Of a stretch of 64,000 nt of DNA, positions 16,012-61,918 are shown one piece after another. Every line of letters starts with the position of its first letter. Position 1 is the stretch's first letter. Position numbers and translations under genes: made by a program. The stretch comes from an uncultured Calditrichaceae bacterium (lineage in GTDB: Bacteria; Calditrichota; Calditrichia; RBG-13-44-9), in assembly GCA_964452045.1 (NCBI GenBank), contig CAYVKM010000005.1, positions 2,945 to 66,944 on the forward strand. Reading direction: 5' to 3'. The notes under the pieces are model-generated. The model was given only the letters and a program-made list of their open reading frames with translations. It did not search any database and was not told where the DNA came from.

Positions 16012-16029
16012 ATTACGGATTCCATCTTT

Positions 16030-34771: not shown

Positions 34772-34787
34772 TGGCACCAAATTTGAA
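34772..34787 (+). promoter_or_regulatory. Sigma-54-like -24/-12 promoter element upstream of the pilin-like gene
   Basis: TGGCAC-CAAAT-TTGAA versus consensus TGGCAC-N5-TTGCW. The -24 element and the spacing are perfect, but the -12 GC is GA. About 150 nt upstream of ATG 34937. It is the only such match I saw in an intergenic region. Confidence 0.4.
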
Positions 34788-34936
34788 GTTATTGGAATCG
34801 CATGAGCAAATTAAGAAGACAAAGTGGAATCAACAAGGAGGTTAAACATGAAAAAGCCCTTTTTTTAAATAAACACCTTAAGCAACCCAATTTTGAACCA
34901 ATTAACCAAATCAATTAATTTTAAGGAGGATTTACA

Positions 34937-35386
34937 ATGGGTCAGCAGCAATTATTACTCATCGTTTTAGGTATCATCATCGTCGGTATTGCCATAGCAG
35001 TTGGTGTGAATATGTTCCAGAGCAGTGCCGTGGACACCAATCGCCAGTCCATGATCAGTGACCTGGCCAACCTGGCAGCCAAAGCACAACGATTCTATCG
35101 GACACCCACCGAGCTGGGTGGCGGTGCTCAGAATTTCCAGAATTTCGCCCTTGGCCGTCTGGATACAGCCAATGCCAATGGCAGCTATCGTTTGTCAACT
35201 TCAGCTGATTTGTCTGCAAATGCAGTTCCTGCCCCAACAACAGCTAATACCTCGATTGCTACTTCAGTGACCGATACGATCTACATTTTGGGCTGGGGTA
35301 AGGAAATGGGCGACATTGGTACTGTCCCGGTCAAAGCACAATGTTCGGTTTCTCCGACCGGAATTCATACTACAATTGTAAACTAA
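34937..35386 (+). CDS. Pilin-like major subunit candidate (non-canonical N-terminus)
   Basis: Strong RBS AAGGAGG 7 nt upstream. 149 aa starting MGQQQLLLIVLGIIIVGIAIAVGVNMFQ, followed by an amphipathic helix (SMISDLANLAAKAQRFY). First gene of the T4P-like locus and followed by its own hairpin terminator, as highly expressed pilin genes often are. No GFTLIE motif. Confidence 0.55.
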   Translation: MGQQQLLLIVLGIIIVGIAIAVGVNMFQSSAVDTNRQSMISDLANLAAKAQRFYRTPTELGGGAQNFQNFALGRLDTANANGSYRLSTSADLSANAVPAPTTANTSIATSVTDTIYILGWGKEMGDIGTVPVKAQCSVSPTGIHTTIVN

Positions 35387-35403
35387 GAAAGCTCTAAAAA
35401 AGG

Positions 35404-35431
35404 GGGCGGGTTTCGAACCCGCCCTGTTTTT
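35404..35431 (+). terminator. Intrinsic terminator/attenuator directly after the pilin-like gene
   Basis: Perfect 9-bp stem GGGCGGGTT / AACCCGCCC with a 3-nt loop, followed by TGTTTTTA. Confidence 0.75.
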
Positions 35432-35452
35432 ATCAGGAAGAGGATGATATAA

Positions 35453-36793
35453 ATGGCAGACTTCAGATTTACCGGGATCTCAAATTCAGGAAAATCAGTG
35501 CAGGGAGTGATAACCGCCGATACTATGTCGGAAGCCAAGAAAAAAATCAAAAAAATGGCTGCCCAGCACAAAGTGAAAATTAACCGCATTCAGAAGCGGA
35601 AGATTTATATGTATAAGATCCAGAAAAACGGTGAAAAGCCCACAGCTGGTGAACAAAAGGCTTTTACCAAAGAAGAGGTCCGTCAGGCGCTGAATAAATT
35701 GGGTTATAATATTGTCAAAATACAACCCAAGATAAATTTTTTAAATATGAGGCCACCGGCAGCCGATATTGTCACCTTTGTTAGGTTAAGCGCCGATTTG
35801 TTAAGGGAAAAACTGCCATTCAATGAAGTTTTACAGTTGCTGGGGAACGATTTAAGCAACCCGACGCTGAGAGATTCGATAAAAGAAATTAACAACGACC
35901 TCCGCCAGGGGAAAGACAGCGAAGAAGCCTTTATGAAGCAGGAGAGAGTGTTTGGGAAATTTACCGCCCGGATGCTGGGGCTGGCCTCCAAGAGTGGTAA
36001 TATGGCGGATATCTATGAGAGTACTGCCAAGTTTCTGGAACGGAATGCGGAATTCAAAAAAAATCTGCGTCAGGCGCTGATCATGCCTTTATTCACCTTA
36101 GTAATTTTATTTGGTGCCTGTATCTTCTATGTGGCCTATATCTTTCCGGAAACAGCAAAATTGTTCCTGAAACTCGGTAGTGAACTCCCCCCCATGACTA
36201 TGGCCACTCTATCTCTGAGTGATTTTCTTATCGCAAATATGTCTTACTTCTTAATGGCAATGGCCTTATCAATTGGTGCACTGGCGTATGCCCTGAGAAC
36301 GGCCAAGGGAAAATTTGTTAAAGATCAGTATATTCTGAAACTGCCCATTATCGGACCAATTGTGCATAAAACGACCATTGAGATTTTTTGTCGGGTGTTC
36401 TACTCACTTTACAGTGGTTCAGGTGAAAACGTGGATGCCATAAAGTTGGCGGCAGAGGCATGCGGTAACCGCTATTTTGAAGACCGGATTAAAAATGTTT
36501 CAATTCCCCTGATGTTGAGAGAAGGACGGGGACTGGTGGATTCATTTAAGGAAGCAGATGTTTTTACGCCCACAGCGCTTTCCCGCTTTAATTCAGGTGC
36601 TGAAACCGGTACGGTGAAAAGCACAGCCATCCAGATAGCCAATTATTACGAAAAAGAAACCGTCTACAAACTTAAGAATGCAGTGGATCTGGTTCAGATT
36701 GTGGTAGCCATGATCATTATGGTCGTAATGACTGCTTTGACTCTGGTTTCTTCCGAAACAGCGCTGGTATCCCCCAAGTCGCCGATCGGTTAA
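35453..36793 (+). CDS. pilC: Type IV pilus / T2SS platform protein (PilC/GspF family)
   Basis: 446 aa with a duplicated T2SSF-like cytoplasmic domain plus TM pattern. Adjacent to the PilB-like ATPase. Confidence 0.8.
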   Translation: MADFRFTGISNSGKSVQGVITADTMSEAKKKIKKMAAQHKVKINRIQKRKIYMYKIQKNGEKPTAGEQKAFTKEEVRQALNKLGYNIVKIQPKINFLNMRPPAADIVTFVRLSADLLREKLPFNEVLQLLGNDLSNPTLRDSIKEINNDLRQGKDSEEAFMKQERVFGKFTARMLGLASKSGNMADIYESTAKFLERNAEFKKNLRQALIMPLFTLVILFGACIFYVAYIFPETAKLFLKLGSELPPMTMATLSLSDFLIANMSYFLMAMALSIGALAYALRTAKGKFVKDQYILKLPIIGPIVHKTTIEIFCRVFYSLYSGSGENVDAIKLAAEACGNRYFEDRIKNVSIPLMLREGRGLVDSFKEADVFTPTALSRFNSGAETGTVKSTAIQIANYYEKETVYKLKNAVDLVQIVVAMIIMVVMTALTLVSSETALVSPKSPIG

Positions 36794-36838
36794 ATATTTA
36801 AGATAAATATGGTAATTCTAATACAGTCAGGATTTTAG

Positions 36839-38626
36839 ATGAAAACGAATGTCGACATTACTGACAGGTTGGGTGTTACCCTTCTCAAGAAGGGTATTGT
36901 CAATTTTGAAACGCTTGAGAAAGCCATTAAAATAAAAGAAAATGGCGGCAAGGGTGAAGGGCGCACTTTAGCCCAGATCCTGGTGAAGGATTTTAATGTC
37001 GATCATGACAGCATTTTTCAGCAGGTAACCCAACTTTATGGTTTCCGCGAGGTGTTCCTGGAAGAAGAGAACATTAATGATAACCGCGTTGCCTTTATGC
37101 GTAAAATGCTGGATCCTCTTCCGGAACCGCTGCGAAAGTTAATGAAAGAAGAAAAAATCCTGGTTTATAAATATGATGAATACCGTCCTTATGTTTTAAT
37201 TATCCTGGCGGCGGACCCCACCAATAAAAATATTCCCCAGATTGCCAGAGCCATTGGTGCCAAAAGATACGAAGTCTGCTATGTAAAACAGCATAAACTG
37301 GACAACCTTTTGGAAAAAATATATCCGGAAGAGAACATCTATCTCAAAGAGATGGATGATATGGCTCTGGAAATTGAAGAGGTGGATAAGGAGCAGGAAT
37401 CTCTTGATGAGGAGGCCATTGAAGCCGAAATCAACAAAAGCTTGCTGGTTAACCTGGTGGAGGGTATGCTGGTTGAAGCAGTAAGGCGGGGTGCTAGTGA
37501 TATTCATATTATACCAAAAGGACCCAGGATATCAGAAATCCACATGCGGGTGGATGGTACGTTGCGTTTGTGGCATGTTCAGGATGGTGTACGACCGGAG
37601 TCGCTGGCAGCTGTAGTCAAGGACCGGACTAAGAATGTGGATCGTTTTGAACGGGAAAAATCCCAGGACGGCTTTATTCAGAGAAAGGTAAACAGTTATA
37701 ATATTCGTTATCGTGTATCAGTAATCCCGATCGTCGGTAAAGAATTTTCACAAAAACTGGAAAGTATTGTTATCCGTATTCTGGATGACCGTAAAGTAAT
37801 TACTGATTTAGATAAGCTTGGTTTTGGCGGGAATGCCAAGGACTTTTTCATTAAAGCAATCTCAAAACCCCAGGGAATGATTATTGTCACCGGGCCTACC
37901 GGAAGTGGTAAATCGACCACCCTGATTGCAGCACTGGCTTACATTATGCGCCCGGAGATTAATGTTCTTACGGTTGAAGATCCGGTGGAATATATTATTA
38001 ATGGAGCCCGGCAAATCAAGATAAGTCACAAGAACAATTTTGAATCTGCCTTGCGGGCAATTCTGCGTCACGACCCGGATGTAGTCATGGTCGGTGAGAT
38101 TCGTGATAAAGAAACCGCTGAAACCGGTATTAAACTGGCGAATACCGGTCACTTGACCTTTTCTACACTTCACACTAACGACGCACCAAGTGCCGTGTCC
38201 CGTCTGTATAAGATGGGGGTGGAAACATTCCTGATTGCTTATGCCATCAATATTATCATTGCCCAGAGGTTGGTTCGCAGACTATGTGAATACTGCAAGA
38301 AACCCATCCGGAGCCTGGATCCGATAGTCCCCAAAAGTCTGGGTTTTACCGATGAGGAGATTAAAAAGACAGTATTTTATGAAGCGGTTGGATGCAATAA
38401 ATGCCATAATGGATATAAGGGACGGGCGGCCATTCATGAAACTTTGTACTTTTCCAAAGAGATCCGGAAACTGATTTTTGAAACCGGGTCGGATATCAAC
38501 GAAGAAGCCATTAAAGAAGTAATGGCCAGAGAGGGTATGCATACCCTGCGGGCGGCGGGCAGGGAACGTATTAAACAAGGTTTGACTACCCTCACTGAAG
38601 TAGCCGCCATAACTACAGAAGATTAA
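36839..38626 (+). CDS. pilB: Type IV pilus assembly (extension) ATPase, PilB/GspE family
   Basis: Walker A GPTGSGKSTT, Asp box VEDPVEY, Walker B DPDVVMVGEIRD, His box TGHLTFSTLHTND. Tetracysteine motif CEYCKK...CNKCHNGYKGR. N-terminal GSPII_E_N-like domain. Confidence 0.9.
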   Translation: MKTNVDITDRLGVTLLKKGIVNFETLEKAIKIKENGGKGEGRTLAQILVKDFNVDHDSIFQQVTQLYGFREVFLEEENINDNRVAFMRKMLDPLPEPLRKLMKEEKILVYKYDEYRPYVLIILAADPTNKNIPQIARAIGAKRYEVCYVKQHKLDNLLEKIYPEENIYLKEMDDMALEIEEVDKEQESLDEEAIEAEINKSLLVNLVEGMLVEAVRRGASDIHIIPKGPRISEIHMRVDGTLRLWHVQDGVRPESLAAVVKDRTKNVDRFEREKSQDGFIQRKVNSYNIRYRVSVIPIVGKEFSQKLESIVIRILDDRKVITDLDKLGFGGNAKDFFIKAISKPQGMIIVTGPTGSGKSTTLIAALAYIMRPEINVLTVEDPVEYIINGARQIKISHKNNFESALRAILRHDPDVVMVGEIRDKETAETGIKLANTGHLTFSTLHTNDAPSAVSRLYKMGVETFLIAYAINIIIAQRLVRRLCEYCKKPIRSLDPIVPKSLGFTDEEIKKTVFYEAVGCNKCHNGYKGRAAIHETLYFSKEIRKLIFETGSDINEEAIKEVMAREGMHTLRAAGRERIKQGLTTLTEVAAITTED

Positions 38627-38644
38627 TGTATCAGGGAGGATGTA

Positions 38645-39184
38645 ATGAACACCGGTCAAATGATGTTAACAATTGGCGCCCTGGCTTTACTCAGCTTTGC
38701 CATCCTTAATCTGAATTCAAGTCTTAATGAGAACGATCTTGGACTTGCCCAAAACAGATATCGGCTGGAAGCTCTTTCCCTTATAACATCATATATGGAA
38801 CAGGCTACTATGTATTTTTTTGACGAATGTACATCCGATACCAGTAGTTTAAAACATGTCTCTGATTTTACCCTCGCCGGAAATCTTGGCGCTGAAGCTA
38901 ATGATTCCTCTGATTTTGATGATTTTGATGATTTTAATAATTACACCAAGATTGATACCGGATTGAGTGGAGTGATTTATAAAGTTATGTTCGATGTAGA
39001 TTATGTAACATTAGTTGGAGATTCTGTTAAACATTCCACTACTAGAAGTTGGCACAAACGGATGACTATTAGAGTAACTGATAATTATGATGATCCTCCT
39101 CTTTTGTATAAAAATGTGAGTGGTGACAAAGTCAAAGATACCCTGAAAATCAGTTTTGTCAACAGTTATTGGTTTTATAATTAA
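38645..39184 (+). CDS. Minor pilin/pseudopilin-like protein (non-canonical N-terminus)
   Basis: RBS GGGAGG. Starts MNTGQMMLTIGALALLSFAILNL. 179 aa. Located between pilB and pilT with two similar genes. Contains an acidic DFDDFDDFNNY segment. Confidence 0.45.
   Translation: MNTGQMMLTIGALALLSFAILNLNSSLNENDLGLAQNRYRLEALSLITSYMEQATMYFFDECTSDTSSLKHVSDFTLAGNLGAEANDSSDFDDFDDFNNYTKIDTGLSGVIYKVMFDVDYVTLVGDSVKHSTTRSWHKRMTIRVTDNYDDPPLLYKNVSGDKVKDTLKISFVNSYWFYN
38912..38938 (+). repeat. In-frame 9-bp tandem repeat (3 units) inside the minor pilin-like gene
   Basis: GATTTTGAT GATTTTGAT GATTTTAAT, encoding DFD-DFD-DFN. Confidence 0.9.
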
Positions 39185-39204
39185 AAATAACCAGAAAGCT
39201 TAAT

Positions 39205-39900
39205 ATGGCTACCTTAATAGATATTATCGGTGGAATTTTTATCGGGGGATTTTTGCTGCTTATTGCTCTGTCGGCCACCGATACGGCAACAACCGAGTTT
39301 TTTAATTATAATTCCGACGCCATTATGCAACAAAATCTGGCAAGAACTTCTGAGATCATCCAGTATGATCTCAGAAAAATGGGGTTTGGAATCCCGGAGG
39401 CATTTCAGAGCACAATCCTTAATGTAGCAACAAGCAATCGTTTGAAATTTCTGGCTCATTTAAACAGCGATCCGGATGCCTCAATGAATATTGCTGCCGT
39501 CACAACCTTTGATAATATTGTAGATACTATAGAATATGTGGCTTTGCCCTTTGACTCCGTGACTTATTATGATACTACTGTAACTACTTATCAGGTTCAA
39601 AGGACCTTAAAAATATCCCCCAATTACAATCATACTATGACTGTTGGGGTAATAGGAAATCAACAGGTTTTTCGTTATCTGGATCAGATAGGAAATGAAA
39701 CCGCTTTTATCCCGGCTACCCGGATGGTTGAAGTAACCTTAACGGCTTTTAATCCTAGGATATTCCTCAGTCGCGATTGGGTGGACAGTAAATTAACCGA
39801 TACCACGAATGTTGCATTGCGTCAAAAAGAATTGCGGCGGTTATTGAGAGCATCTTACTGGCGTCAAACTCGCTTGATTTCAAGAAATTTAAGGCGATAA
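39205..39900 (+). CDS. Minor pilin/pseudopilin-like protein (leaderless TLID N-terminus)
   Basis: Starts M-ATLIDIIGGIFIGGFLLLIAL. This resembles the mature FTLIE N-terminus of type IV pilins but has no leader and no Gly(-1). 231 aa. Confidence 0.5.
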   Translation: MATLIDIIGGIFIGGFLLLIALSATDTATTEFFNYNSDAIMQQNLARTSEIIQYDLRKMGFGIPEAFQSTILNVATSNRLKFLAHLNSDPDASMNIAAVTTFDNIVDTIEYVALPFDSVTYYDTTVTTYQVQRTLKISPNYNHTMTVGVIGNQQVFRYLDQIGNETAFIPATRMVEVTLTAFNPRIFLSRDWVDSKLTDTTNVALRQKELRRLLRASYWRQTRLISRNLRR

Positions 39901-39914
39901 CAAGGAGGTATATC

Positions 39915-41159
39915 ATGGTAGGTAAAGGTGCTTTATTAATTGTATTTGGATTTATAATGGCTTTTTCGATGTATCAGTTAAAGATGAGTCATAACGTTCT
40001 TGCCACATCCGATAATTTTGTTAATAACTATATGGAAACACTTCTTCATGAAACAGCCTTAAGTGCCATGAATTTGGCGATTAACAAAGTCTGGGATCAG
40101 GATGTCAAGAATGATACCTTTATGATAAGAGCCAATCATTGCTCATCCAGAGTAGAAATCCGTCAACCAGGTTCGGATACCGTTCGGGTAAAAGTGAAGA
40201 CCTGGGGACGGGGTTACGATATGGAAGAGCAGTTATTTGTAGAAAAGTCAGATTCGATTACGGCTTATTTTGCTTCCGATATTCAACTATCAAAATTTTT
40301 CTGGTTCACAGAAAATGAAGGTAATGTCTACTGGATTAGCGGAGATACTATCTGGGGACCCATGCACACCAATACAGTGGTTAAAACCTGGGGTTCGCCG
40401 GTTTTCTACGGGAAAGTGACTGCTAAAGCAGGGATAACACCAAATCCCTTGTCTAAGAAAAATGAGGCAGAATTTAATGGGGGCTGGGAAATTGGGGTAG
40501 AGAATGAAATCCCTACGGATATGTCTAAAATTTTTAACGCTGCTGTTGCCGGAAATGGCGGTGCTGCACCAAATACAAAATGTATGTATGATACACCAAC
40601 AAGTTTTGAATTTTTAGCCAATGGGGATGTCATCAGAACGGTGGGAGCTAATCCACCGGACACGGTGAGTCTGGTAACTATTGCCCCAACCGGAGCAATT
40701 TATTCCACCGACGAAATCAGGGTAAAGGGCACATTTAATGGTGATGCAACAATTTATTCAAAAACAAATATTTACATCGACGATGATTTGGTTTATGCGG
40801 ATAACCCGATGATCAATCCAAATTCAGATGATCTTTTAGGGTTGGTGGCCCAAAATGATGTACTCATTACCGATAATGTTGCCAATAACAGCGATTGTAA
40901 TTTACAGGCCAGCATCTTTGCCATAAATGGAAATTACGGAGCGGAAAATTATGCCTCGCGACCTGTTTCCGGGGTGCTGCGTTTTGCGGGAAGTATCGCC
41001 CAGAAGCATAGGGGACCGGTTGGTACGTTTTCTTATGGCGCGGGGCTAAAATCCGGATTCTCCAAGCGTTATTATTATGACCTAAGACTACAAAACATGG
41101 CACCAAAGAATTTTCCATCTATACAAGGCTCTTTATACTTAGTTGCCTGGTGGGAATAG
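39915..41159 (+). CDS. Large pilin-like / tip-associated subunit candidate
   Basis: RBS AAGGAGG. Starts MVGKGALLIVFGFIMAFSMYQL, followed by a ~390-aa beta-rich domain. Its position in the locus is analogous to PilX/GspK-type large minor pilins. Confidence 0.4.
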   Translation: MVGKGALLIVFGFIMAFSMYQLKMSHNVLATSDNFVNNYMETLLHETALSAMNLAINKVWDQDVKNDTFMIRANHCSSRVEIRQPGSDTVRVKVKTWGRGYDMEEQLFVEKSDSITAYFASDIQLSKFFWFTENEGNVYWISGDTIWGPMHTNTVVKTWGSPVFYGKVTAKAGITPNPLSKKNEAEFNGGWEIGVENEIPTDMSKIFNAAVAGNGGAAPNTKCMYDTPTSFEFLANGDVIRTVGANPPDTVSLVTIAPTGAIYSTDEIRVKGTFNGDATIYSKTNIYIDDDLVYADNPMINPNSDDLLGLVAQNDVLITDNVANNSDCNLQASIFAINGNYGAENYASRPVSGVLRFAGSIAQKHRGPVGTFSYGAGLKSGFSKRYYYDLRLQNMAPKNFPSIQGSLYLVAWWE

Positions 41160-41185
41160 GTGTTCACTGAGAAAGGATTTATTTG

Positions 41186-42538
41186 ATGTCGACAAACTGG
41201 CAATTTGAAGCAGAAGCGAAAAAAGCGCTGGATATAGAAAAGAAGGAAATAAAGGAGGCACAACCGGAAACTCTGGAGAGAAAAAAGACGCCGAATGCTG
41301 AAATTCCCAGAATTGTTGAAAACGGGAAAAAGCTACTGGAGCACCTGAAGAAGCAGGTTCCTTCAGCACTGTTCAGCGTTGACAAGGAACAGTTTATCGG
41401 TCATACTTTACTTCCCAAAGTTAGTGACCAGCATAAGTTAATTCTGCGGAATCTGATTAATACATTTCTGGAGGAGATGAGACGATTGGGAGCATCAGAT
41501 ATTGATCTGGGGGGTATGGGGAGCCAGAAAAAGGTCTGGTTTCGAATCCATGGAGATAAAAAGCCAATAGAAATATTTGGTAACTACGAGATAACGGAAT
41601 TTGATATCCTTATTCAGAGCATCTTACTGGCATCACAACTTGACGATTTATACGAACGGCGAAATGTTGACTTTTCCTATACTTTTTCCAGCAGCGAAAG
41701 ACAGTTATATCGAAACCGGGCCAATGTTGCTTTCGATTTGAATGCCCTTTCCTTAAATATGCGTGCCATTGAGACCCGCGCCCGGCGATTTGACCAGTAC
41801 GGATTTCACCCACATGTCGCTAAAAATCTTCACCTGAAATATACCAAAGAAGGACTCATCCTGGTGACCGGTATTACTGGCTCTGGAAAAAGTACCACAC
41901 TGGATGCGATTGTAGAATTGAATAATCAGACTGTTCCGGCACATGTTATTATTATTGCATCACCGGTCGAGTTTGTTCATACCCCCAAGAGATGTATAAT
42001 TCGACACCGGGAAGTTGGCCGGGATACTACTTCCTTTAAGCAGGGAACTATTGAGGCTCTGCGTCAGGATCCGGATATTATCATCATCGGTGAGATGCGA
42101 GATCCGGATACCATTATGTCTGCTCTGGAGGTGGCAGATAGTGGTCATAAAGTATTTTCTACCCTGCATACTTCCTCGGCGGTAGAGAGTATCGACCGTA
42201 TTATTGCGGAGGTACCCACCACAGAGCAGGATCGTATTCGAAACCGGTTGGCTGATGTTTTGCGGGTGGTGATGTCCCAGAAACTTGTTCAGACCATTGC
42301 CGGAGACCGGGTGATGGCCAAGGAGGTAATGGTGATGACACCCTCCATCCGGGCAGCGATTAAAAACAACAATGTGAATGAAATTTATCAGATGATCAGT
42401 GAAGGACATCAATGGGGGATGAATACCATTGAGCAGGATTTGGCGAAGTTGTATTTTGAAAGAAGAATAACTAAAGAAACCGCAATTAATTACGCTAATA
42501 ATAAGAGAAGATTGCAGCAGTTACTAAAAATGGCATAA
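41186..42538 (+). CDS. pilT: PilT/PilU family retraction-type ATPase with ~100-aa N-terminal extension
   Basis: Walker A GITGSGKSTTL, ASPVEFVH, Walker B DPDIIIIGEMRD, His box SGHKVFSTLHTSS. ATG 41186 is preferred over the adjacent TTG 41183. Confidence 0.85.
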   Translation: MSTNWQFEAEAKKALDIEKKEIKEAQPETLERKKTPNAEIPRIVENGKKLLEHLKKQVPSALFSVDKEQFIGHTLLPKVSDQHKLILRNLINTFLEEMRRLGASDIDLGGMGSQKKVWFRIHGDKKPIEIFGNYEITEFDILIQSILLASQLDDLYERRNVDFSYTFSSSERQLYRNRANVAFDLNALSLNMRAIETRARRFDQYGFHPHVAKNLHLKYTKEGLILVTGITGSGKSTTLDAIVELNNQTVPAHVIIIASPVEFVHTPKRCIIRHREVGRDTTSFKQGTIEALRQDPDIIIIGEMRDPDTIMSALEVADSGHKVFSTLHTSSAVESIDRIIAEVPTTEQDRIRNRLADVLRVVMSQKLVQTIAGDRVMAKEVMVMTPSIRAAIKNNNVNEIYQMISEGHQWGMNTIEQDLAKLYFERRITKETAINYANNKRRLQQLLKMA

Positions 42539-42554
42539 ATCAAGGATGTAGGTT

Positions 42555-44147
42555 ATGGCTAAATACAAAGAATTTACCGGGAAATTAGCAGTTGGGTTAT
42601 TTGTGGAGGGACACTATCTGCACGTTGCATGTTTGTCCAAAAAAGACAATACGGTACAATTAGTGGACGGGCAAGTTCTTAAAATGTCCAAAGCCCTGGA
42701 AACAGTACGGGTTCAACAGGAAATATTTTCGGACTCTGCCGACGCCCCGGAAATAATTACCCCGCAAACGGACGATGAGAGCATTACTTTCGAGGAAGCA
42801 CCGGAGAAGGAATTAAATCTGAGTGGCATCGATGCGGAAAATTATGACAATATGGAAGTGCTTCAACGGGTATTATATCAATACCCTTCCAATAAATTTC
42901 GGATGGGTATCTCCCTGGCCGAACCCCAAATTTATTATACTTATTTTGCTACAGACTGGGGCTTAAGCGGAGAAAAATTGAAGAAACGGGTTATTGAGGA
43001 AGTTTCCCGGGAACGTAAAGATTTTGAGATGACCAAACCGGATGCGGTCTATATCAAAAAATTACGTGACGGTCGCTTAATGGCTATTGTGCGGGAAAGC
43101 CAGGTAAACGTTATTAATTCTTTGCAATATTTGCAGACCGAAAACCGCAAGGTGCTCCCCAAAATATCTTTTGTGGAAAGTGCGGAAACATCTTTGGTAA
43201 ATCTGATTAATGCCAATTATTATTTTGAAGATGAGGACTTTACTGTCATTGTTTACATGGGCAATGAGTACAGCCGTTTAATATTCCTGCAGGGTCATGA
43301 GATATTCAATATTTCCTACATAATTGGGGCGGGCCTGGATTCGGAGAATATTACTCATACCATCTACAGCCGTATTTTACTGGAACAGGATAATCTAAAC
43401 CTGCCCAGAGTTCAGAATATTATCCTGGCCGGCGAAGCGCACCAGGTGAGCCTGCGAGAATTTTTAAAGGAGAAGTTATCTGACGATATCAAAATTGATT
43501 ACCTCACTTTACCGAATCTGGAAATATATGATGAAGAAATAGAAGTTTCCAAGTACGCCATTGCCATTGGTGCTGCCTGGCGTACCCAGAACGATAAAGA
43601 GAAATTTCTGTATGATGTGGATCTTTTACCGGATAGTTTCCGGGAAAGTCAGAAGAAATTTAAGCTGGGTCTAATTGGCTGGTTATTGCTTTTTACCCTT
43701 CCGGCAATCGCCTATTTCACCACTATAAAAATCAGTGAGCAGCGGGAAGTTCTGAAAGAATTAATTGCTCAGCAGCAATATCATCAGGAAGAGTTGGATT
43801 ATCTCAAAGGAATAGAGGCAAAACTTAATGAGAGGCGGACAGTTCTGGCCAATTATGAAAAGGCATTTGGCGTCCTGGATGAAATGTCTGCCGGCATTGA
43901 CAAGTGGAATAAGTTCCTCCACAAGTTGTCCATTAACCAGGATAAAATTGGTCGAATTTGGATTACAGAAATCATTCCCACTGCCGATAATGAGGTGGTG
44001 TTAAAGGGATATGCGGTTTATCGGGATCGAATTCCCAGACTGTCGCAGGTCATGGGAGCAGGGGCATTAAAAATTGTTCAGGTACAGGCGATTCGGGAAC
44101 GGACAGTTTATTACTTTGAAATGAACGCCACTTTGCCAACGGATTAA
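42555..44147 (+). CDS. pilM: PilM-like actin-fold protein fused to a PilN-like TM/coiled-coil module
   Basis: N-terminal 340 aa have PilM/FtsA-like blocks (LAVGLFVEGHYLHVA, VIVYMGNEYSRLIF, IIGAGLDS, ILAGEA, AIAIGAAW). These are followed by a TM helix (LGLIGWLLLFTLPAIAYFTTI), a coiled coil and a C-terminal alpha/beta region. Confidence 0.65.
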   Translation: MAKYKEFTGKLAVGLFVEGHYLHVACLSKKDNTVQLVDGQVLKMSKALETVRVQQEIFSDSADAPEIITPQTDDESITFEEAPEKELNLSGIDAENYDNMEVLQRVLYQYPSNKFRMGISLAEPQIYYTYFATDWGLSGEKLKKRVIEEVSRERKDFEMTKPDAVYIKKLRDGRLMAIVRESQVNVINSLQYLQTENRKVLPKISFVESAETSLVNLINANYYFEDEDFTVIVYMGNEYSRLIFLQGHEIFNISYIIGAGLDSENITHTIYSRILLEQDNLNLPRVQNIILAGEAHQVSLREFLKEKLSDDIKIDYLTLPNLEIYDEEIEVSKYAIAIGAAWRTQNDKEKFLYDVDLLPDSFRESQKKFKLGLIGWLLLFTLPAIAYFTTIKISEQREVLKELIAQQQYHQEELDYLKGIEAKLNERRTVLANYEKAFGVLDEMSAGIDKWNKFLHKLSINQDKIGRIWITEIIPTADNEVVLKGYAVYRDRIPRLSQVMGAGALKIVQVQAIRERTVYYFEMNATLPTD

Positions 44148-44165
44148 TGATAAAGGAGAAAGAAA

Positions 44166-45056
44166 TTGTCATATAAACTTAGAAATATCATTGTTCTTAT
44201 CTCACTGGTCGTCCTGCTGGGAGGGGTAAGTGGATATTTTACACTTTACCATTATCCCAAAAAGATTAAAATCGTCCAAAAGAAAATTGACGGTATAAAG
44301 AAGCAAATTTCAAATTTGGCCGGTGTTGAGGAAGAATACAAAAACATTGAGAAGATTATTAAAGAAAAAGAGCAGCGGTTAGCAAATCTCGACAGGAAAA
44401 TTGTGCCAGCGGTGACGCCTGCAAACAGTTATCAGTATCTGAACACTATTCTGAATTACAGCGGTGTTCTGGATTTTGATATGCTTTATCAGGGTGTGAA
44501 AAGTGCCGGTCGATATAGCTATAATGTCTATAATATTAAGGGTGAAGGTCCGTACTATAAAATTTACAAGTTTATCACTTTTTTAGAAAAGGGTCCCCAG
44601 GTTTATAAGATCAATAAATTGACCATGAGAATGGTTGAGGATAAGGACAAAGAGACCAGTGCCTACCGGATAATTATTACTTTTGAAATGGAAATATGGG
44701 CATTGTTTGCCGATGTCCAGAATTTGCCTCCTATTAAACGTACCCTGGGAAATGTGTACGTAAAGAGAGCCTCAAATCCCTTCTATCCCTATATCTATAG
44801 AAACATCCCAGCTAATGTGGATGAACGTTTAGAGGTGGAAAGGGCGGAATTAAAGGCCATTTTACCGGACAAAATCATGGTGGCGGACGCGGAAGGCAAG
44901 ATCCACGAATTGCAGGAAGGTGATAAGGTTTATCTGGGATATCTGAAGAGAATAGATCATGAAAATAACAAAGCATACTTTGTTTTGAATAAAGGAGGCA
45001 TTGTAGAGACATTCGAACTTCATATCAGGTTCGGTGAGGAGACGACTGGTAAGTAA
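44166..45056 (+). CDS. PilO/GspM-like bitopic alignment-complex protein candidate
   Basis: TTG start after AAAGGAG. N-terminal TM (IIVLISLVVLLGGVSGYFTLY), a coiled coil, then a globular domain. Lies between the PilM/N-like gene and the secretin. Confidence 0.4.
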   Translation: MSYKLRNIIVLISLVVLLGGVSGYFTLYHYPKKIKIVQKKIDGIKKQISNLAGVEEEYKNIEKIIKEKEQRLANLDRKIVPAVTPANSYQYLNTILNYSGVLDFDMLYQGVKSAGRYSYNVYNIKGEGPYYKIYKFITFLEKGPQVYKINKLTMRMVEDKDKETSAYRIIITFEMEIWALFADVQNLPPIKRTLGNVYVKRASNPFYPYIYRNIPANVDERLEVERAELKAILPDKIMVADAEGKIHELQEGDKVYLGYLKRIDHENNKAYFVLNKGGIVETFELHIRFGEETTGK

Positions 45057-45087
45057 ACTGTTCATAAACCCGAAGAAAGAGTTGCCC

Positions 45088-46299
45088 ATGAAAGCACGTA
45101 TTATTCTGTTAATCATCTTAGTTACGCTGATCGGGACGACAGCGATATTTGGACAAGGAAGACGATTCCGACCCCTGCGGAATGCCTATACAGCGCCGGA
45201 AGAGATTGTGTCTCTCTCCAATACCATGACGTTTAGCCAGGCCTTAGCGCTCTTTAATGATTTGAGTAAAAAATTTCTGGGAAAAATTATTGTTGATCCG
45301 GAGGGACTCAATTTCCCGATTGGCGAGGACATTGAGAAAATGCACTGGCTGGATGCAATGGAACTTATCCTGAAGCTGCATAATCTATGGTACGAGGAGT
45401 ATGAGGATTACATCAAAATTATTCCAATGGGTGGTGAGCAGGGAAAAAAGATATCAGCGGCAGATCAAAAATTACTAAGTGAATTTGATAATCGTGAAGT
45501 AATTATTACAGCAGTCTTCTTCGAAACTGACATCTCTAAACTTCGTCAGGCCGGAATGAGCTGGGATCTTTTCCGGGGAAGGGATGCAAATGCCCGGGTG
45601 AATATGAGTGCCGCCGAAACACAAAGCGGTCTGTTCCAGATTGATGTGAATCCGAATTGGGATTTTGCAGATGTTCTGGCCACCTTTAAGGCGCTGGAAA
45701 GCGATAATATTGGTGAGGTTATTTCCAGTCCCCAGGTCACGGTGAAGTCAGGTGGTGAAGGACGAATCCAGGTGGGGAGCGACATTTCGGTTACCATTCA
45801 GGATTTCGCTGGAAATGCGATCACTCAATTCTTTTCAACCGGATCAATTATCCGGGTTAAACCGGTAATTGTGAGAAAGGACTCCATTGATTTTGTCATC
45901 CTCGATCTGGAAGTAGAACGAAGTAATACCGCAACCGGTGATGTGGGCCTGGAAATTCGCAAATCAAAAGCGGAAACAGATGTATTGCTCCTTGATGGAG
46001 AGGAAACCATTATCGGTGGTCTGTTCATCAATGAAGAGGGCAACTCCCGGGAAGGTATTCCCTTTCTGAAAGATCTGCCCTGGTGGTTTTTCGGATTGCG
46101 CTATGTCTTTGGATTCGAGTCAAAAACAGTTCGGAAAAAAGAACTGATCATATTGTTGAAAGCCGAGTTGTTACCCTCATTGGAACAACGATTCAGAAGC
46201 AAAATAACTGGCGCCCGTAAAACTGACCTGTTAATTGAGTACAATAATGCCTTTAAAAATAAGATGCGGTATTACGAACGCAGATTAAAAAACCGATAA
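45088..46299 (+). CDS. pilQ: Secretin (PilQ/GspD family), short form
   Basis: Signal peptide MKARIILLIILVTLIGTTAIFGQG from ATG 45088; the ORF track start at 45034 overlaps the previous gene. Secretin domain blocks: GEVISSPQVTVKSGGEGRIQVG, DGEETIIGGLF, GIPFLKDLPWWFFGLRYVFG, ELIILLKAELL. Confidence 0.85.
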   Translation: MKARIILLIILVTLIGTTAIFGQGRRFRPLRNAYTAPEEIVSLSNTMTFSQALALFNDLSKKFLGKIIVDPEGLNFPIGEDIEKMHWLDAMELILKLHNLWYEEYEDYIKIIPMGGEQGKKISAADQKLLSEFDNREVIITAVFFETDISKLRQAGMSWDLFRGRDANARVNMSAAETQSGLFQIDVNPNWDFADVLATFKALESDNIGEVISSPQVTVKSGGEGRIQVGSDISVTIQDFAGNAITQFFSTGSIIRVKPVIVRKDSIDFVILDLEVERSNTATGDVGLEIRKSKAETDVLLLDGEETIIGGLFINEEGNSREGIPFLKDLPWWFFGLRYVFGFESKTVRKKELIILLKAELLPSLEQRFRSKITGARKTDLLIEYNNAFKNKMRYYERRLKNR

Positions 46300-46314
46300 T
46301 CTGGAGCCAATAAT

Positions 46315-47703
46315 ATGAAAAAATATTTTCCTTTACTTGTACTCTTGATGTTCATTTTTTGGGGGCTGTTCAGTTGTAACAGTCCAACAGATTCGGATGA
46401 GCCAAATCCGGAAAATATGGTGGTACTATCAGGTCAGGTGCAAAATTCGGAAACAGCGACACCGATTGCGAATGCTGTGGTAATTCTTTTGGATTATTCC
46501 CCGGAGCAATCCACCGTTACCGATGCCCAGGGCATGTTTACCCTGGAATTTGAAGTGGACCAAACGGCTGATGTAAGAGTGGTAGCTTTCAAGGCAACCT
46601 TTATTGCAGATACGATCTCGGTATTAGCTGTACCCGGGCAAACCATCGATGATCTTCAATTAAACTTAACCGCAACTTCCGGAACACCTGTAACAAGTGG
46701 ATCTGCTGCAAGTATTATTTTATCGACAGTATCAGTGTCCAGCATAGGTGTTCGAGAGAGTGGATCTCCGGAAGTCGCCGAAATTACTTTCGAAGTACAG
46801 GATTCTATGGGAGTACCGGTTGATGTTGAGCATGCGGTTACGGTAGACTTTGAGCTGGGTTCCTCACCTGGTGGCGGGGAATTTTTAAGTCCGCTGAGTG
46901 CCGAAACCGGTCCCAATGGTAAAGTCAGTACCAGTATCTTCAGTGGTACGGTATCGGGAGTCGTTCAGGTTATGGCATCGGTCGACGAGGGTGGTACGGT
47001 TATTAGGTCACTTCCTGTTGCGATTGCCATCCATGGGGGATTACCGGATTCTACTCATTTTAGTATTGCGGTGGAAAAGCTGAATTTCCCGGGTTATAAC
47101 ATTTATGGATTGACCGATGGGATTACAGCTTACGTCGGTGATAAGTACGGAAATCCGGTAAGACCCGAAACGGCGGTTTATTTTACCACCACCGGTGGCA
47201 TTATTGAAGGATCTGCTTTAACCGATCTTATGGGCCGTGCATCAGTCGATCTGATGTCTGCAGATCCCAAACCATTTCACCCGGTATATGGTGCCGGTTT
47301 CGCAACTGTAACCGCCCGAACTGCAGATGAAAACCAGAATACTATAGAGAGCAGCGGAATTGTCCTCTTCTCAGGAATTCCGCAAATTTCTGTCAATCCA
47401 ACATCATTTAATATTCCCAATCAAGGTAGTCAGTCTTTTGTTTGTACAGTGTCTGACCAGAATGATAACCCATTAGCTGGTGGAACGAGTATAAGGGTCT
47501 CTGTGGAAACAGGTGATGTCGAGGCTGTAGGAAATACTGATATAACTCTTCCTGATACCCAGAGTCCAGCCTGGACTAATTTTGGATTTTCTTTGGTAGA
47601 TTCAGCTCCTGATTCGAATCAGGTCAATAACGTCAGCGTCAAAATCAGTACTACTGGTCCAAATGGTAATTTAGAAGTTTCAATTTCGGGAATTGCCCAC
47701 TAA
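46315..47703 (+). CDS. Lipoprotein with carboxypeptidase-regulatory-like and Ig-like (Big) beta-sandwich domains
   Basis: Lipobox LFSC. VLSGQVQNSETATPIANAVVILL...TDAQGMFTLEF is CarboxypepD_reg-like. Repeated ~90-aa Thr/Ser/Val-rich beta segments follow. Last gene before the strong terminator. Confidence 0.55.
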   Translation: MKKYFPLLVLLMFIFWGLFSCNSPTDSDEPNPENMVVLSGQVQNSETATPIANAVVILLDYSPEQSTVTDAQGMFTLEFEVDQTADVRVVAFKATFIADTISVLAVPGQTIDDLQLNLTATSGTPVTSGSAASIILSTVSVSSIGVRESGSPEVAEITFEVQDSMGVPVDVEHAVTVDFELGSSPGGGEFLSPLSAETGPNGKVSTSIFSGTVSGVVQVMASVDEGGTVIRSLPVAIAIHGGLPDSTHFSIAVEKLNFPGYNIYGLTDGITAYVGDKYGNPVRPETAVYFTTTGGIIEGSALTDLMGRASVDLMSADPKPFHPVYGAGFATVTARTADENQNTIESSGIVLFSGIPQISVNPTSFNIPNQGSQSFVCTVSDQNDNPLAGGTSIRVSVETGDVEAVGNTDITLPDTQSPAWTNFGFSLVDSAPDSNQVNNVSVKISTTGPNGNLEVSISGIAH

Positions 47704-47742
47704 AGACCATCACGTGGCGGCAGCATAATACATCCTCTTCCA

Positions 47743-47771
47743 AAGGGCACAGTTCATGTGCCCTTTTTTTA
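47743..47771 (+). terminator. Intrinsic terminator closing the T4P-like locus
   Basis: 9-bp stem AAGGGCACA / TGTGCCCTT with loop GTTCA, followed by a T-run ending at 47770. Confidence 0.8.
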
Positions 47772-47947
47772 TTATCCATTGAAAAATCACCGTATAAAGT
47801 CCTGGCTGAACTTATTTACCGGATCATTCGTTTTTAATCTGGTGATTCAAATTTATATTTAGTTGAATCCATTCGGAAAAGGGAGTAGAATAAAGTGGGA
47901 AATTTAGTGGAAATCAGAAAGTACTAGAATTAAATGGATGAGGTAAA

Positions 47948-51821: not shown

Positions 51822-52199
51822 CTACTTTTTTTCAGCCTTTTTGGAATAGACCTTGACAAACTCCTGTTTGTACATTTGCTGGGTAAAGAGGACAGTCCGC
51901 TCTTCCGCCTGCTGAATATTTTCGCCGTATTTTTCCTGTAACCGGTCGCAGATAGCCAGGATATTCAATTTACCATCAAAAAGTTGCCAGATAAATGTTC
52001 CGATTTCGTCCAGATGAATTCTCTGGGCGGGAGATTTGGGTTTCGGTAAAAATTTCCGGGTAAACCAATTTTCCGGGTGTGGAACAATTAATACGACATG
52101 AGATTTTTCATCCATTTCATATTCTACCTGACGAATGGGATAGAGCGATAGCCAGTCAGAAATTATTTGCTCCCGATCCGGATTGTTTTTCTGCTTCAT
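51822..52199 (-). CDS. PqqD family (RRE-like) protein with N-terminal extension
   Basis: The C-terminal 70 aa (IHLDEIGTFIWQLFDGKLNILAICDRLQEKYGENIQQAEERTVLFTQQMYKQEFV) fit the PqqD pattern. The start codon overlaps the upstream stop (TGATG). Confidence 0.6.
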   Translation of the reverse strand: MKQKNNPDREQIISDWLSLYPIRQVEYEMDEKSHVVLIVPHPENWFTRKFLPKPKSPAQRIHLDEIGTFIWQLFDGKLNILAICDRLQEKYGENIQQAEERTVLFTQQMYKQEFVKVYSKKAEKK

Positions 52200-53554
52200 C
52201 AGCTTACTTTCATTTTTAAATAACGATTCAGGGTTTTGTGGTCAATCTTGAGTATTTCTGCAACCGTACCTTTTTTCTGATACTTTTCAAATAATTCCAA
52301 GGCGTACAGAGCTGCCATCTCCTTCAAGCTATAGTCCCGTTGAACACTTTTTGATATTACTTTAATTTTTTCATTATATTGTTTTGCCAGCACATCCTTA
52401 ACAGATATTTTCTCCGGGTGAAAAACCAGGATATTGGTAATCGAGTTTTTTAACTCCCGAAGATTACCTTTCCAGGTCAAATTTTCTAAAAGCGGATAAA
52501 TCTCCGGATCGATTTCGGGAATGCCTAAATTTTCCTTGCTACAAATATCCCGGACAAAATGGTCAAAATAAAGTTGAATGTCTTCCCTGCGCTCAGTTAA
52601 AGGGGGGATATTAATCAGAAACCCGGCTAATCTGAAATACAGATCCTTCCGAAAATTTTCCCTTTCTACCTCATCGGACAGATCATGGCTGGTGGTGGCC
52701 ATAATCCGGATGTCGACCTCAATTTTATCTCTGCCGCCCAGTGGAAAAAAGCTTTTCTCTTCAATTACCTGAAGTAGTTTTGCCTGAATGGAAGGTGATA
52801 AATCGCCAACCTCGTCAAGTAATAAAGTTCCTCCATCCGCAGCTTTAAATTTACCTTTTGAGCTTCTGTCTGCGCCGGTATATGCACCACGCACGTGACC
52901 GAACAATTCATTTTCTGCCAGTTCTGGGGAAAGGTTGGCACAATTAATCGTCACAAACGGTTTATTCGCTCTGGGGGATAATTGATGAATATATCTGGAC
53001 AGGTAATTTTTACCGGATCCGGTGGGCCCAATAATAAGAAGCGGCAAATCGCTGGAACTTACATTTTTCGCTGTTTGGCGCAAAGATTTTGCGGTTTCGC
53101 TCTCACCTAAAATTGAAAATTCTTCGGTGGTTTTGCGCAATTCAGCGCTCAAATATTTATTCTCCCTTTCCAGAGTTATCAGTTCGTATGCCTTTTTGAT
53201 AAGTACGGGTAATTCGAATTCGAGGCTTTCGGTTTTTTCGAAGACGGCATAGACACCGGAGTTCTGAACTTTGCGCAGTAATTCTCTGTCGGTGTAGGCG
53301 CTGACGACAATTATTTTGCAATCGATTTTTTGTTTGATAATTTCCTGGATGGTATCAATACCTTCCTGGGGACCTGGAAGACCCAGATCCATAATCACCA
53401 CGTCGAAATAACCATTACTTAAAGCAGAAATTGCCTCCGACCGGTTGGCACAAAAGGTGGGTTGAAATTCGTTTTTAAGCCATACTTTGAATAAACGACG
53501 CCAGTTTAATTGATCTTCCACCACTAAAATGTTTGGCGTGATTTCAGAAATCAT
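52199..53554 (-). CDS. Sigma-54-dependent response regulator (NtrC family: REC + AAA+ + Fis-type HTH)
   Basis: REC: ILVVEDQ, VVIMDLGLPG. AAA+: GPTGSGKN, ENELFGH, GAYTGA (GAFTGA variant), LLLDEVGD. C-terminal HTH: GTVAEILKIDHKTLNRYLK. Confidence 0.9.
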   Translation of the reverse strand: MISEITPNILVVEDQLNWRRLFKVWLKNEFQPTFCANRSEAISALSNGYFDVVIMDLGLPGPQEGIDTIQEIIKQKIDCKIIVVSAYTDRELLRKVQNSGVYAVFEKTESLEFELPVLIKKAYELITLERENKYLSAELRKTTEEFSILGESETAKSLRQTAKNVSSSDLPLLIIGPTGSGKNYLSRYIHQLSPRANKPFVTINCANLSPELAENELFGHVRGAYTGADRSSKGKFKAADGGTLLLDEVGDLSPSIQAKLLQVIEEKSFFPLGGRDKIEVDIRIMATTSHDLSDEVERENFRKDLYFRLAGFLINIPPLTERREDIQLYFDHFVRDICSKENLGIPEIDPEIYPLLENLTWKGNLRELKNSITNILVFHPEKISVKDVLAKQYNEKIKVISKSVQRDYSLKEMAALYALELFEKYQKKGTVAEILKIDHKTLNRYLKMKVS

Positions 53555-61075: not shown

Positions 61076-61918
61076 TTATTTTGCCTGATGGCCCTGGGTA
61101 TAATCCAATTCCGACCCAAATACACTGTGTGGAATGAGATAAACGGCCAGCATTAAGAAAGCTGCAAAAAATATCCAGCCCCGGCTTTTCTCACCCCTAC
61201 TGTTTTTTAGCCAGGCCCAGAGCCAGCCGAGCATGGCGATCAGCGTCTTATTGTCGGTCAAATCGTAGCCGAAGGGAATGCCGGTCCATAATTCACCGAA
61301 AGCATATTTCTGAACCAGTGGTCCCAGAATAAATCCTCCCACCAGAAACAGGCCCATGGTCCAGTACATATATCTTTTGGCATTTCCTTCCGGATCAAGT
61401 GCCTCCAAAGCAGTTCGGTTGGAGAACAACATAGCCAGGAACATAAGCAGAATGTGGGGAATCAAAACGGCTTCTGGCACATGACCCTTGAATCGGATGA
61501 TCACAGGCTCATCTCCGGTGATAGATAGCGTTCGACTGCCCGTCTGAAGATAAACCTGATAAATTAGTTTACCGGCGGCAGGTTGTCTGGGAAGTTGCTG
61601 GGTGATAAAATCTCCATCCCGTTTCAGGAGCAGCTTGTTCCATTCGTCGTTCGAGTTATAGCGTTTGTATTTCACATAGCCATGAATCAACGTATCTGGT
61701 ACCTCTATTTTGATTAAGGCATCACGATCGGTAATTTCACTGCGCAATAGTTTAAAGGAAATCTCGGTGCTATTTATATGGACTTTGCCCCGAACCGGGT
61801 AGGTTGGCCCGGTAAGCCTTTGATAAACTGCCGAACTAACGGTAATTAAAATGGCAATTATCCATAATATTGTTTTATGGTGTGCTATATGAAAATTGAA
61901 AAATCTATCCTTGGTCAT
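61076..61918 (-). CDS. Hypothetical membrane protein (N-terminal anchor, beta-rich domain, about 4 C-terminal TM helices)
   Basis: Call rests on hydrophobicity pattern only. No motif recognised. Confidence 0.4.
   Translation of the reverse strand: MTKDRFFNFHIAHHKTILWIIAILITVSSAVYQRLTGPTYPVRGKVHINSTEISFKLLRSEITDRDALIKIEVPDTLIHGYVKYKRYNSNDEWNKLLLKRDGDFITQQLPRQPAAGKLIYQVYLQTGSRTLSITGDEPVIIRFKGHVPEAVLIPHILLMFLAMLFSNRTALEALDPEGNAKRYMYWTMGLFLVGGFILGPLVQKYAFGELWTGIPFGYDLTDNKTLIAMLGWLWAWLKNSRGEKSRGWIFFAAFLMLAVYLIPHSVFGSELDYTQGHQAK

Follow-up and report, generated by a model that had tools for sequence, protein, structure and literature searches.

Can a type IV pilus be assembled from pilins that carry no leader peptide, without a prepilin peptidase to process them? 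This question is raised by a locus of eleven genes (g1 to g11, positions 34937-47703) in a stretch of 64,000 nucleotides from an uncultured Calditrichaceae bacterium (GenBank contig CAYVKM010000005.1), the whole of which we call the window. In reviews and comparative studies, pilin, prepilin peptidase, ATPase and platform protein count as the universal core of every type IV filament, with Gly-1 and Glu5 as the mark of its subunits (PMC4471445; PMC6668835). The locus very probably encodes a pilus machine of the type IVa (T4aP) kind. On balance, we regard a complete, single-operon, retractile type IVa-kind pilus with leaderless pilins and no need for an A24 prepilin peptidase as its best explanation. 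That the pilins lack any leader peptide is the most notable feature of this system, beyond mere divergence. The leaderless, Gln5-type pilin family and the possible independence from the peptidase appear to be undescribed, and our literature search turned up no account of pilins without a leader or of type IV pili made without the peptidase; the genes of the cluster have already been noticed at the level of genome annotation.

The evidence begins with g1 (34937-35386; this and all features below lie on the + strand unless marked otherwise), which encodes the presumed major pilin, a protein of 149 aa with no leader peptide and an invariant N-terminus, MGQQQLLLIVLG. The protein really begins M-G-Q-Q-Q-L-L-L, because its ATG lies 7 nt behind a strong Shine-Dalgarno sequence (TAAGGAGG, 34922-34929) and there is no in-frame start further upstream. 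For comparison we used related loci, most of them from a scan for relatives of g8 with one genome per species; 165 species genomes carry such a relative, and the best 80 of these 165 loci were surveyed for synteny with tblastn. The start M-G-Q-Q-Q-L-L-L is present in 48 of 48 related loci, with G2, Q4, Q5 and L7 invariant, and g1 is the first gene wherever a related locus reaches far enough upstream. Searched by profile, 1.84 billion representative proteins yielded a g1 family of 1978 clusters at 50% identity; about 130 of its 148 best representatives start with M-G-x-Q-Q-[LI]-L-L, and across the family the residue after the Gly may be Q, T, S or N, next to fixed Q4 and Q5. The predicted structure (AlphaFold2 from 40 homologues; predicted local distance difference test, pLDDT, 81) has a helix at residues 3-55 packed on a four-stranded sheet, which is the 'lollipop' of pilins, and the sole full-length Foldseek match of this model was PAK pilin (1oqw, TMq 0.57, E 0.35). 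Behind g1 lies an attenuator-like element, an intrinsic-terminator-like hairpin with a T-run (35403-35431, hairpin 35403-35425, 10-bp GC-rich stem). Of 48 related loci, 30 likewise have a strong hairpin and a T-run behind g1. The hairpin sequence is not conserved among them; its presence there fits a highly expressed major subunit.

Two further observations concern the pilin family. Tandem or multiple MGQQQ pilin paralogues occur in some genomes, as in L072, L082 and L084, where the open reading frame (ORF) after g1 again opens ATGGG.CA.CAACAG, and as P0373/P0374 and P0457/P0470. The head segment of the pilin (profile about 32-97) is also found in three to five internal copies in longer proteins of 286-581 aa (P0238, P0243, P0265, P0276, P0308, P0352), which have ordinary signal-peptide-like or lipoprotein-like N-termini; the head is therefore also a repeat module outside pilins.

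Three more genes encode subunit-like proteins with comparable N-termini, and these are probably minor pilins, as judged from sequence. The minor-pilin-like product of g4 (38645-39184, 179 aa) starts M-x-x-G-Q, followed by a hydrophobic helix, in 43 of 43 loci, with G4 and Q5 invariant (MNTGQ in the window). It matched no family and no PDB entry, including by PDB profile search, and is assigned as a pilin because of its N-terminus and gene position. The product of g5 (39205-39900, 231 aa), also minor-pilin-like, begins M-A-T-L-I-D, with an acidic residue at the place of the canonical Glu5. Its start is M-[GSAT]-[ST]-[LIM]-[LI]-D in Calditrichia and Kryptonia and M-G-S-Q-[TV]-I-L-D in Ignavibacteria, and its profile, aligned to the N-terminus of the Thermus pilin TTHA1219, places Asp on Glu5 in a weak match that is not significant (E 0.24). 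The larger g6 product (39915-41159, 414 aa) has an N-terminal hydrophobic helix, a start of M-x-G-K or M-G-R across loci (MVGKG in the window) and a DUF4900-like region that is below threshold in 8 of 10 homologues; its C-terminal part may be beta-helical, according to a weak match, and it is a candidate tip subunit. Like g4, g5 and g6 had no significant PDB profile match.

What unites these proteins is a single hydrophobic segment at the extreme N-terminus of each of g1, g4, g5 and g6, preceded by 1-3 residues in g5 and g6 and by 1-4 in the minor subunits overall. The charged leader, Phe1 and Glu5 of canonical pilins are each missing from every subunit, and Gln5 is invariant in g1 and g4. None of the four matched N_methyl (PF07963), TIGR02532 or another pilin family at E <=0.1; hits to the standard N_methyl models had been proposed in an earlier reading of the window (the original prediction) as part of the outcome that would speak against its view of the locus. 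The canonical prepilin motif G-[FM..]-[ST]-L-[ILV]-E is absent from the 1.39 Mb of DNA that make up the window and the related loci.

The second part of the evidence is the local absence of a prepilin peptidase. No Peptidase_A24 was found with Pfam among the ORFs of at least 120 aa in the window, the polytopic membrane proteins of which are FeoB, a CLC channel, BacA, a CPBP/Rce1-like protease, DUF5362 and one family-less protein of 280 aa. A scan for the A24 motif GxGD-K was likewise negative in the related loci, 1.39 Mb of DNA: in 86 loci, 80 of them from the genome scan, no polytopic ORF up to about 10 kb from the cassette carried it, and A24 was not among the Pfam matches listed for 43 polytopic ORFs (the 25 commonest of 51 families). 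The absence of A24 is hence a local observation, holding for the window and for about 10 kb around the related loci. The CPBP/Rce1-like protease (PF02517, 23945-24781, - strand) represents the sole membrane-embedded protease family in the window and was considered as a dedicated replacement; this candidate was rejected, as it lies 10 kb off and is syntenic only in close relatives. Beyond the loci themselves, the paper on the complete genome of Melioribacter roseus reports pilT, pilQ, pilB and pilC as present and states 'pilA and pilD not found'.

Taken as they stand, these N-termini suggest pilins that would be made without a class III leader, the assembly helix beginning 1-4 residues after Met1. 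Phe1 and Glu5 would be replaced, with Gln5 standing in for Glu5, to give an N-terminus chemically unlike the canonical one. Assembly of the subunits into the filament would involve hardly any cleavage of the N-terminus, or none, and an A24 prepilin peptidase would therefore not be needed. We favour this absence of endoproteolysis slightly over a cut after the Gly because the residue after the Gly of g1 varies while Q4 and Q5 are fixed, because g5 of Calditrichia and Kryptonia has only Met before TLID, and because pilD was not found in the one complete genome for which there is a relevant report. Independence from the peptidase nevertheless falls a little short of an even prospect, judging from the sequences at hand, and it is with somewhat more reserve that we propose a large unrecognized class of type IV pilus that needs no prepilin peptidase and has pilins synthesized already 'mature', with an N-terminus that is uncharged or capped differently; its machine would be that of at least 165 species from four FCB lineages.

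Several points weigh against pilins that are leaderless and never cut. The match of the g1 model to PAK pilin lacks statistical significance (E 0.35), and what supports g4-g6 as pilins is the N-terminus of each and the place of its gene. The literature that we searched contains no observation or analysis of pili from these organisms. The statement on pilD in M. roseus dates from 2013 and is based on annotation, and we infer that the pil genes of that species belong to the same cassette; a search for homologues of the Ignavibacterium-type pilin returned no proteins of the M. roseus or Ignavibacterium album type strains among the matches listed. Furthermore, a Gly-Gln junction is present in both g4 (M-N-T-G/Q, with a slash marking the junction) and g1 (M-G/Q), and this junction could serve a peptidase cutting after Gly as the site of a very short leader. 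Such a peptidase might be encoded at a distance, as prepilin peptidases are commonly 'loner' genes, often located outside the pil loci and serving more than one system (PMC6668835).

These considerations lead to the alternative that survives best, namely that the locus encodes an ordinary T4aP whose A24 peptidase, encoded elsewhere, cuts after the conserved Gly. The leaders would then be of 2-4 residues, with Gln for Phe at +1, and the sites would be M-G/QQQ in g1, M-x-x-G/Q in g4 and M-x-G/K or M-G/R in g6; an N-terminal Gln could cyclize to pyroglutamate, which would leave Glu5 unneeded. The invariant Gly just before the helix in g1 (G2) and g4 (G4) is what such a cut would predict, and the rest of the machine is T4aP-like. 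Some members of the g1 family are labelled 'UPF0333' by the Joint Genome Institute (JGI), which we take to be a class of archaeal pilins with Gln at +1. Archaeal pilins of the EppA type combine Gln at +1 with Glu5, a charged leader of normal kind and an A24 peptidase dedicated to them; they share with the subunits described here a Gly-Gln junction before the hydrophobic helix, and differ in that the stretch before the Gly is here of 1-3 residues at most and Glu5 is lacking. The variation of the residue after the Gly in g1, next to invariant Q4 and Q5, fits a rule counted to position 5 from Met1 better than it fits a +1 rule, and g5 of Calditrichia and Kryptonia, with only Met ahead of its TLID-type motif, also speaks against a cut. 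We know of no precedent for an uncharged leader of two residues (M-G). With pilD also reported missing from the complete M. roseus genome and no A24 near the related loci that were fetched, we consider an ordinary, cleaving T4aP a real if doubtful possibility.

Either way, the leaderless or minimally processed subunits are encoded together with motors and a platform of familiar kind. The platform protein PilC (g2, 35453-36793, 446 aa) has two T2SSF repeats (PF00482, 105 bits) and scores about 150-158 bits against the GspF and PilC models, under their equivalog cut-offs. The extension ATPase PilB (g3, 36839-38626, 595 aa; T2SSE, 350 bits) carries a CxxC...CxxC zinc motif. Its best NCBIfam model was TIGR02538, the T4aP PilB, at 436 bits (equivalog cut-off 675), compared with 389 bits for the GspE model, also under its equivalog cut-off, and with 193 for ComGA, 118 for BfpD and 50.6 for TadA-like models. 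Against the PDB it matched the T4aP PilB of Myxococcus xanthus and Geobacter at 308-312 bits (M. xanthus 312) and GspE at 267-273 bits. The retraction ATPase PilT (g7, 41183-42538, 451 aa) belongs to the PilT/PilU family and passed the cut-off of TIGR01420 (324.6 bits against 319.1); it has an N-terminal extension of about 90 aa, its nearest PDB matches were the PilT proteins of Aquifex, Geobacter and Pseudomonas (205-218 bits), and its gene is kept in every related locus that covers that position. The N-terminus of PilB (RLGVTLLKKGIVNFETLEKAI, residues 10-44) gave a weak match to the MshE-type motif that binds cyclic di-GMP (NF053729, E 0.015; MshEN, E 0.039), which hints that extension may be under cyclic di-GMP control.

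The alignment proteins point in the same direction. Although g8 (42555-44147, 530 aa) had no Pfam hit, predicted structure and profile search show it to be a PilM-PilN fusion. The model (AlphaFold2, 53 homologues, pLDDT 80) comprises an actin-like PilM domain (about 10-345), a transmembrane helix (about 369-390), a long coiled coil and a small alpha/beta, PilN-like domain. Foldseek ranked the PilM:PilN structure of Pseudomonas aeruginosa (5eou) at the top (E 1.7e-13), followed by PilM of M. xanthus and Thermus, with the cytoplasmic domain of the GspL homologue EpsL (1yf5) at only E 3e-6, and the family profile matched M. xanthus PilN over residues 371-497 (E 2.4e-4). This ranking and the PilN profile match confirm the fusion that had been claimed originally. 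The PilO-like product of g9 (44166-45056, 296 aa) had weak profile matches to M. xanthus PilN (E 0.004) and PilO (E 0.038). At its C-terminus is an extra, strongly conserved, beta-rich domain of about 90 aa, with the pattern NPF..P then GD..LG...I, which had no Pfam and no PDB sequence match; in an hhalign comparison with three PDB PilP sequences it aligned weakly over 42 columns (P 0.012), and the register was the expected one. A PilO-PilP fusion is thus a possible reading of g9, and it bears on the parts that the original prediction had listed as missing: an A24 peptidase, a PilY1-like protein and a pilin with an N-methylation motif were indeed not found in the window, while PilP is perhaps present as this C-terminal domain.

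The short secretin g10 (45088-46299, about 403 aa) matched PF00263 at 95 bits over residues 220-380 of an ORF of 421 aa, which is open from a GTG at 45034; we place the start at the ATG at 45088, as called on public contigs. Family searches detected neither an AMIN nor a Secretin_N domain in it, and it scored 85 bits against the PilQ model, far under the cut-off of 284. The last gene, g11 (46315-47703), encodes a lipoprotein with CarboxypepD_reg and Ig-like (Big_1/invasin) domains, as identified by family searches. It follows the secretin in most related loci that reach that far, with a length of 459-462 aa in Calditrichia and Kryptonia and of 800 to more than 2000 aa in Ignavibacteria (e.g. 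L034:13841-20677). This expansion suggests a surface-exposed protein built of repeats, and g11 is a candidate partner of the secretin or surface adhesin; no PilY1-like gene was found in the locus or the window. In the window, acidic residues follow the lipobox Cys of g11 (C-NSPTDSDEP).

Together, these matches bear out the identities first proposed for PilC, PilB, PilT, the secretin and the Ig-domain lipoprotein, and the general picture of conserved ATPases, platform and secretin beside highly divergent subunits that match no standard pilin model. Because its motors, platform and alignment proteins are of T4aP type, we read the locus as that of a retractile pilus. With the T4aP of M. xanthus, P. 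aeruginosa and Thermus thermophilus it shares PilB, PilT, PilC, PilM, PilN, a PilO-like protein, a secretin, a major subunit with a predicted pilin fold and a pilin promoter that resembles a sigma-54 promoter. It differs from them in that PilM and PilN are fused, all genes form one operon, the secretin is of about 400 aa without AMIN or N-domain matches, there is no separate PilP gene, no PilY1 and no PilD gene in or near the locus, and the pilins have no leader, no Phe1 or Glu5 and no N_methyl match. The relaxed T4aP model of TXSScan asks for four mandatory and five total genes, with pilA, pilM and pilP accessory (PMC6668835), and would probably call the locus a T4aP because so few genes are needed. 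Other families of the superfamily fit less well: PilB gave the best ATPase match and no Flp-like subunits are encoded, contrary to what Tad, type IVb pilus (T4bP), mannose-sensitive haemagglutinin (MSH) or Com systems would require. The machine is a lineage-specific variant of the T4aP and not a new branch, since the best match of PilB is T4aP PilB, PilT lies above its cut-off and g8 is nearer to PilM than to GspL. The suggestion of an undescribed branch of the superfamily was consequently not upheld; genome papers, moreover, already mention the cluster.

A different use of such a machine would be protein secretion, in which a T4aP-derived pseudopilus would act as a piston that exports or displays proteins such as g11. 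Members of the superphylum FCB provide a parallel, as the putative type II secretion systems ('T2SS') of Bacteroidetes (Cytophaga hutchinsonii CHU_3191-3201, Fjoh_0611-0622) are likewise encoded at a single locus with very divergent subunits. They branch with T4aP in the phylogeny of the superfamily of type IV filaments (TFF; PMC6668835; PMC5553014), and their PilM/N/O/P-like platform proteins show remote homology only (PMC5553014; PMC6668835). The Cytophaga cluster, however, has an in-cluster Peptidase_A24 (CHU_3197), a GspG-type major pseudopilin and no PilT (PMC5553014), whereas the locus described here has PilT, no A24 and no T2SS_G domain and is a different system. The fused architecture of g8 is shared with GspL of the T2SS (an actin-like cytoplasmic domain, one transmembrane helix and a periplasmic ferredoxin-like domain), yet g8 scores seven orders of magnitude better against structures of PilM, and the match of its periplasmic part is to PilN. 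That g11 adjoins the secretin in most loci and is a giant Ig-repeat protein in Ignavibacteria would suit a cargo or adhesin; against this, PilT is kept in every locus that covers its position, the gene of the major subunit has its own terminator, as for abundant pilins, and neither T2SS_G (PF08334) nor GspC was matched in the locus. We therefore regard secretion as improbable, in keeping with the first assessment, which saw a self-contained type IV filament locus and took its PilT-type ATPase to argue for a retractile pilus rather than a T2SS. Amuc_1098-1102 of Akkermansia also combine a long PilM-like protein with a secretin-like outer-membrane protein (the Amuc_1101 and Amuc_1098 families); with 25 bits for g8 and 20.5 bits for g10 against cut-offs of 650 and 750, respectively, the likeness is one of architecture only.

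Least probable of all, and very improbable in our view, is that true pilins with normal leaders are encoded elsewhere and that g1 and g4-g6 serve as accessory proteins anchored in the membrane: no family or structure was matched by g4-g6 and T4aP pilin genes can sit outside machinery loci, but g1 models as a pilin lollipop, stands in the position of a major pilin with an attenuator hairpin in the window and at that place in every locus extending far enough upstream, and occurs as tandem paralogues as pilins do, and the canonical prepilin motif is absent from the 1.39 Mb of related DNA.

The layout of the locus is that of a single operon. Its eleven ORFs, all on the + strand, are separated by spacers of 66, 45, 18, 20, 14, 23, 16, 18, 31 and 15 nt from g1 to g11, and 612 nt of non-coding DNA lie between g1 and the end of the upstream neighbour BacA/UppP at 34324. 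An intrinsic terminator with a 10-bp GC-rich stem and a T-run (47742-47772, hairpin 47742-47766) follows g11. ORF coordinates and the two hairpins with their stems and T-runs accordingly agree with the co-oriented genes, the 14-66 nt spacers, the upstream non-coding DNA, the hairpin after the first gene and the terminator after the last that had been described before. The start of the locus, which had been set at 34772, is in the leader and not at a gene start (g1 begins at 34937); it does coincide with a sigma-54-like -24/-12 promoter element, TGGCAC-N5-TTGA (34772-34786), a consensus match about 165 nt upstream of g1. The element TGGCAY-N5-TTGA lies 146-177 nt upstream of g1 in eight Calditrichia loci (the window and L007, L011, L014, L015, L017, L023 and L026), and three Ignavibacteria loci (L031, L042 and L060) have a perfect TGGCAC-N5-TTGC at 62-79 nt upstream of g1. 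Rfam gave no riboswitch or other RNA family, either in the whole window at gathering thresholds or in the 612-nt leader at E <=1. The GC content of the locus (0.40-0.43) is the same as that of its flanks, and the notion of a recently acquired island was rejected because of this equality and because the neighbours are housekeeping genes.

From these elements a working order can be proposed for the retractile, leaderless pilus. The major pilin g1 would be highly transcribed, probably from the sigma-54-like promoter, and the hairpin behind it would terminate part of the transcription. PilB (g3) would extend the fibre on the platform PilC (g2) and PilT (g7) would retract it, with g4, g5 and g6 as putative minor subunits that prime or cap the fibre as a tip complex. 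The PilM-PilN fusion (g8) and the PilO-like g9, the C-terminal domain of which may substitute for PilP, would link the cytoplasmic motor to the short secretin g10, and the conserved Ig-like lipoprotein g11 would serve as an outer partner or adhesin.

Conservation of the locus indicates that this is a working system. Homologues of g8 are 70-98% identical within Calditrichia (98% for the relative on contig CAZTXJ010000002.1), 42% in Candidatus Kryptobacter and 30-35% in Ignavibacteria-type metagenome-assembled genomes. All eleven genes recur, in unchanged order, in Candidatus Kryptobacter tengchongensis. Among the best 80 loci the order from g1 to g11 is common to Calditrichota, Kryptoniota, KSB1/Zhuqueibacterota and many Ignavibacteriota, and the search for syntenic loci in related genomes that had been suggested at the outset thereby returned the same cassette. 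Eleven-gene synteny across lineages of phylum level, with all genes intact, points to a functional system under purifying selection, and the cassette is neither a one-off nor a decayed remnant. Some Ignavibacteria have g4-g6 moved or replaced. In L056 the minor subunit genes (15212-17808) stand after g11, and several of the Ignavibacterium-type loci L036, L063, L080, L081 and L085 have, between pilB and pilT, a g4-like ORF that is read from the opposite strand. For the chromosome CP070707.1 (L008), a range of 10 kb holds g7-g11 but none of the other genes of the cassette, and the locus is apparently split. Published accounts of the cassette are brief: the genome paper of Caldithrix abyssi mentions only a 'Pili IV cluster' (PMC5317091), and the portion of the supplementary tables of the TFF superfamily paper that was available to us has no entry for Melioribacter, Ignavibacterium or Caldithrix.

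If pilins that need no peptidase are confirmed, one of the four supposedly universal core components would be dispensable, and the salt bridge between Glu5 and the N-terminal amine would be replaced by another contact in the core of the fibre. A leaderless pilus would provide a direct test of what leader cleavage, N-methylation and Glu5 do, the candidate roles being extraction from the membrane, registration of the fibre and neutralization of charge. It would also explain the 'incomplete' pilus gene sets reported for Melioribacter and its relatives, and would add a large unannotated pilin family to the Pfam, NCBIfam and TXSScan models. The lineages that bear the cassette abound in sediments and hot springs as degraders of insoluble polymers, and the pilus is for this reason likely to matter for attachment, motility or DNA uptake. 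Cultured members, including C. abyssi, I. album and M. roseus, make the question experimentally tractable.

Some neighbouring genes deserve mention. Four ORFs of the window, of 155-282 aa, have no Pfam family (E <=0.001-0.01, thresholds varied), at 61076-61918 (-), 62055-62636 (+), 62665-63513 (+) and 6301-6768 (-); one of them is the polytopic membrane protein of 280 aa. A sigma-54-dependent response regulator of the NtrC type (Response_reg and Sigma54_activat; 52199-53554, - strand) is encoded 4.5 kb downstream of the locus, adjoining a PqqD-like gene and three SurA/PPIase-like genes, and from its domains could be a PilR-like regulator. In six Ignavibacteria loci, large polytopic PMT_2 (GT-C-like mannosyltransferase) and TPR proteins are encoded just upstream of the pilin gene (L034:1-1635, L035:413-3697, L041:1754-3442, L043:3-1676, L054:2989-4626 and L057:3-1586). 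These are candidate pilin glycosyltransferases, and in the window their place upstream of the pilin gene is occupied by BacA/UppP.

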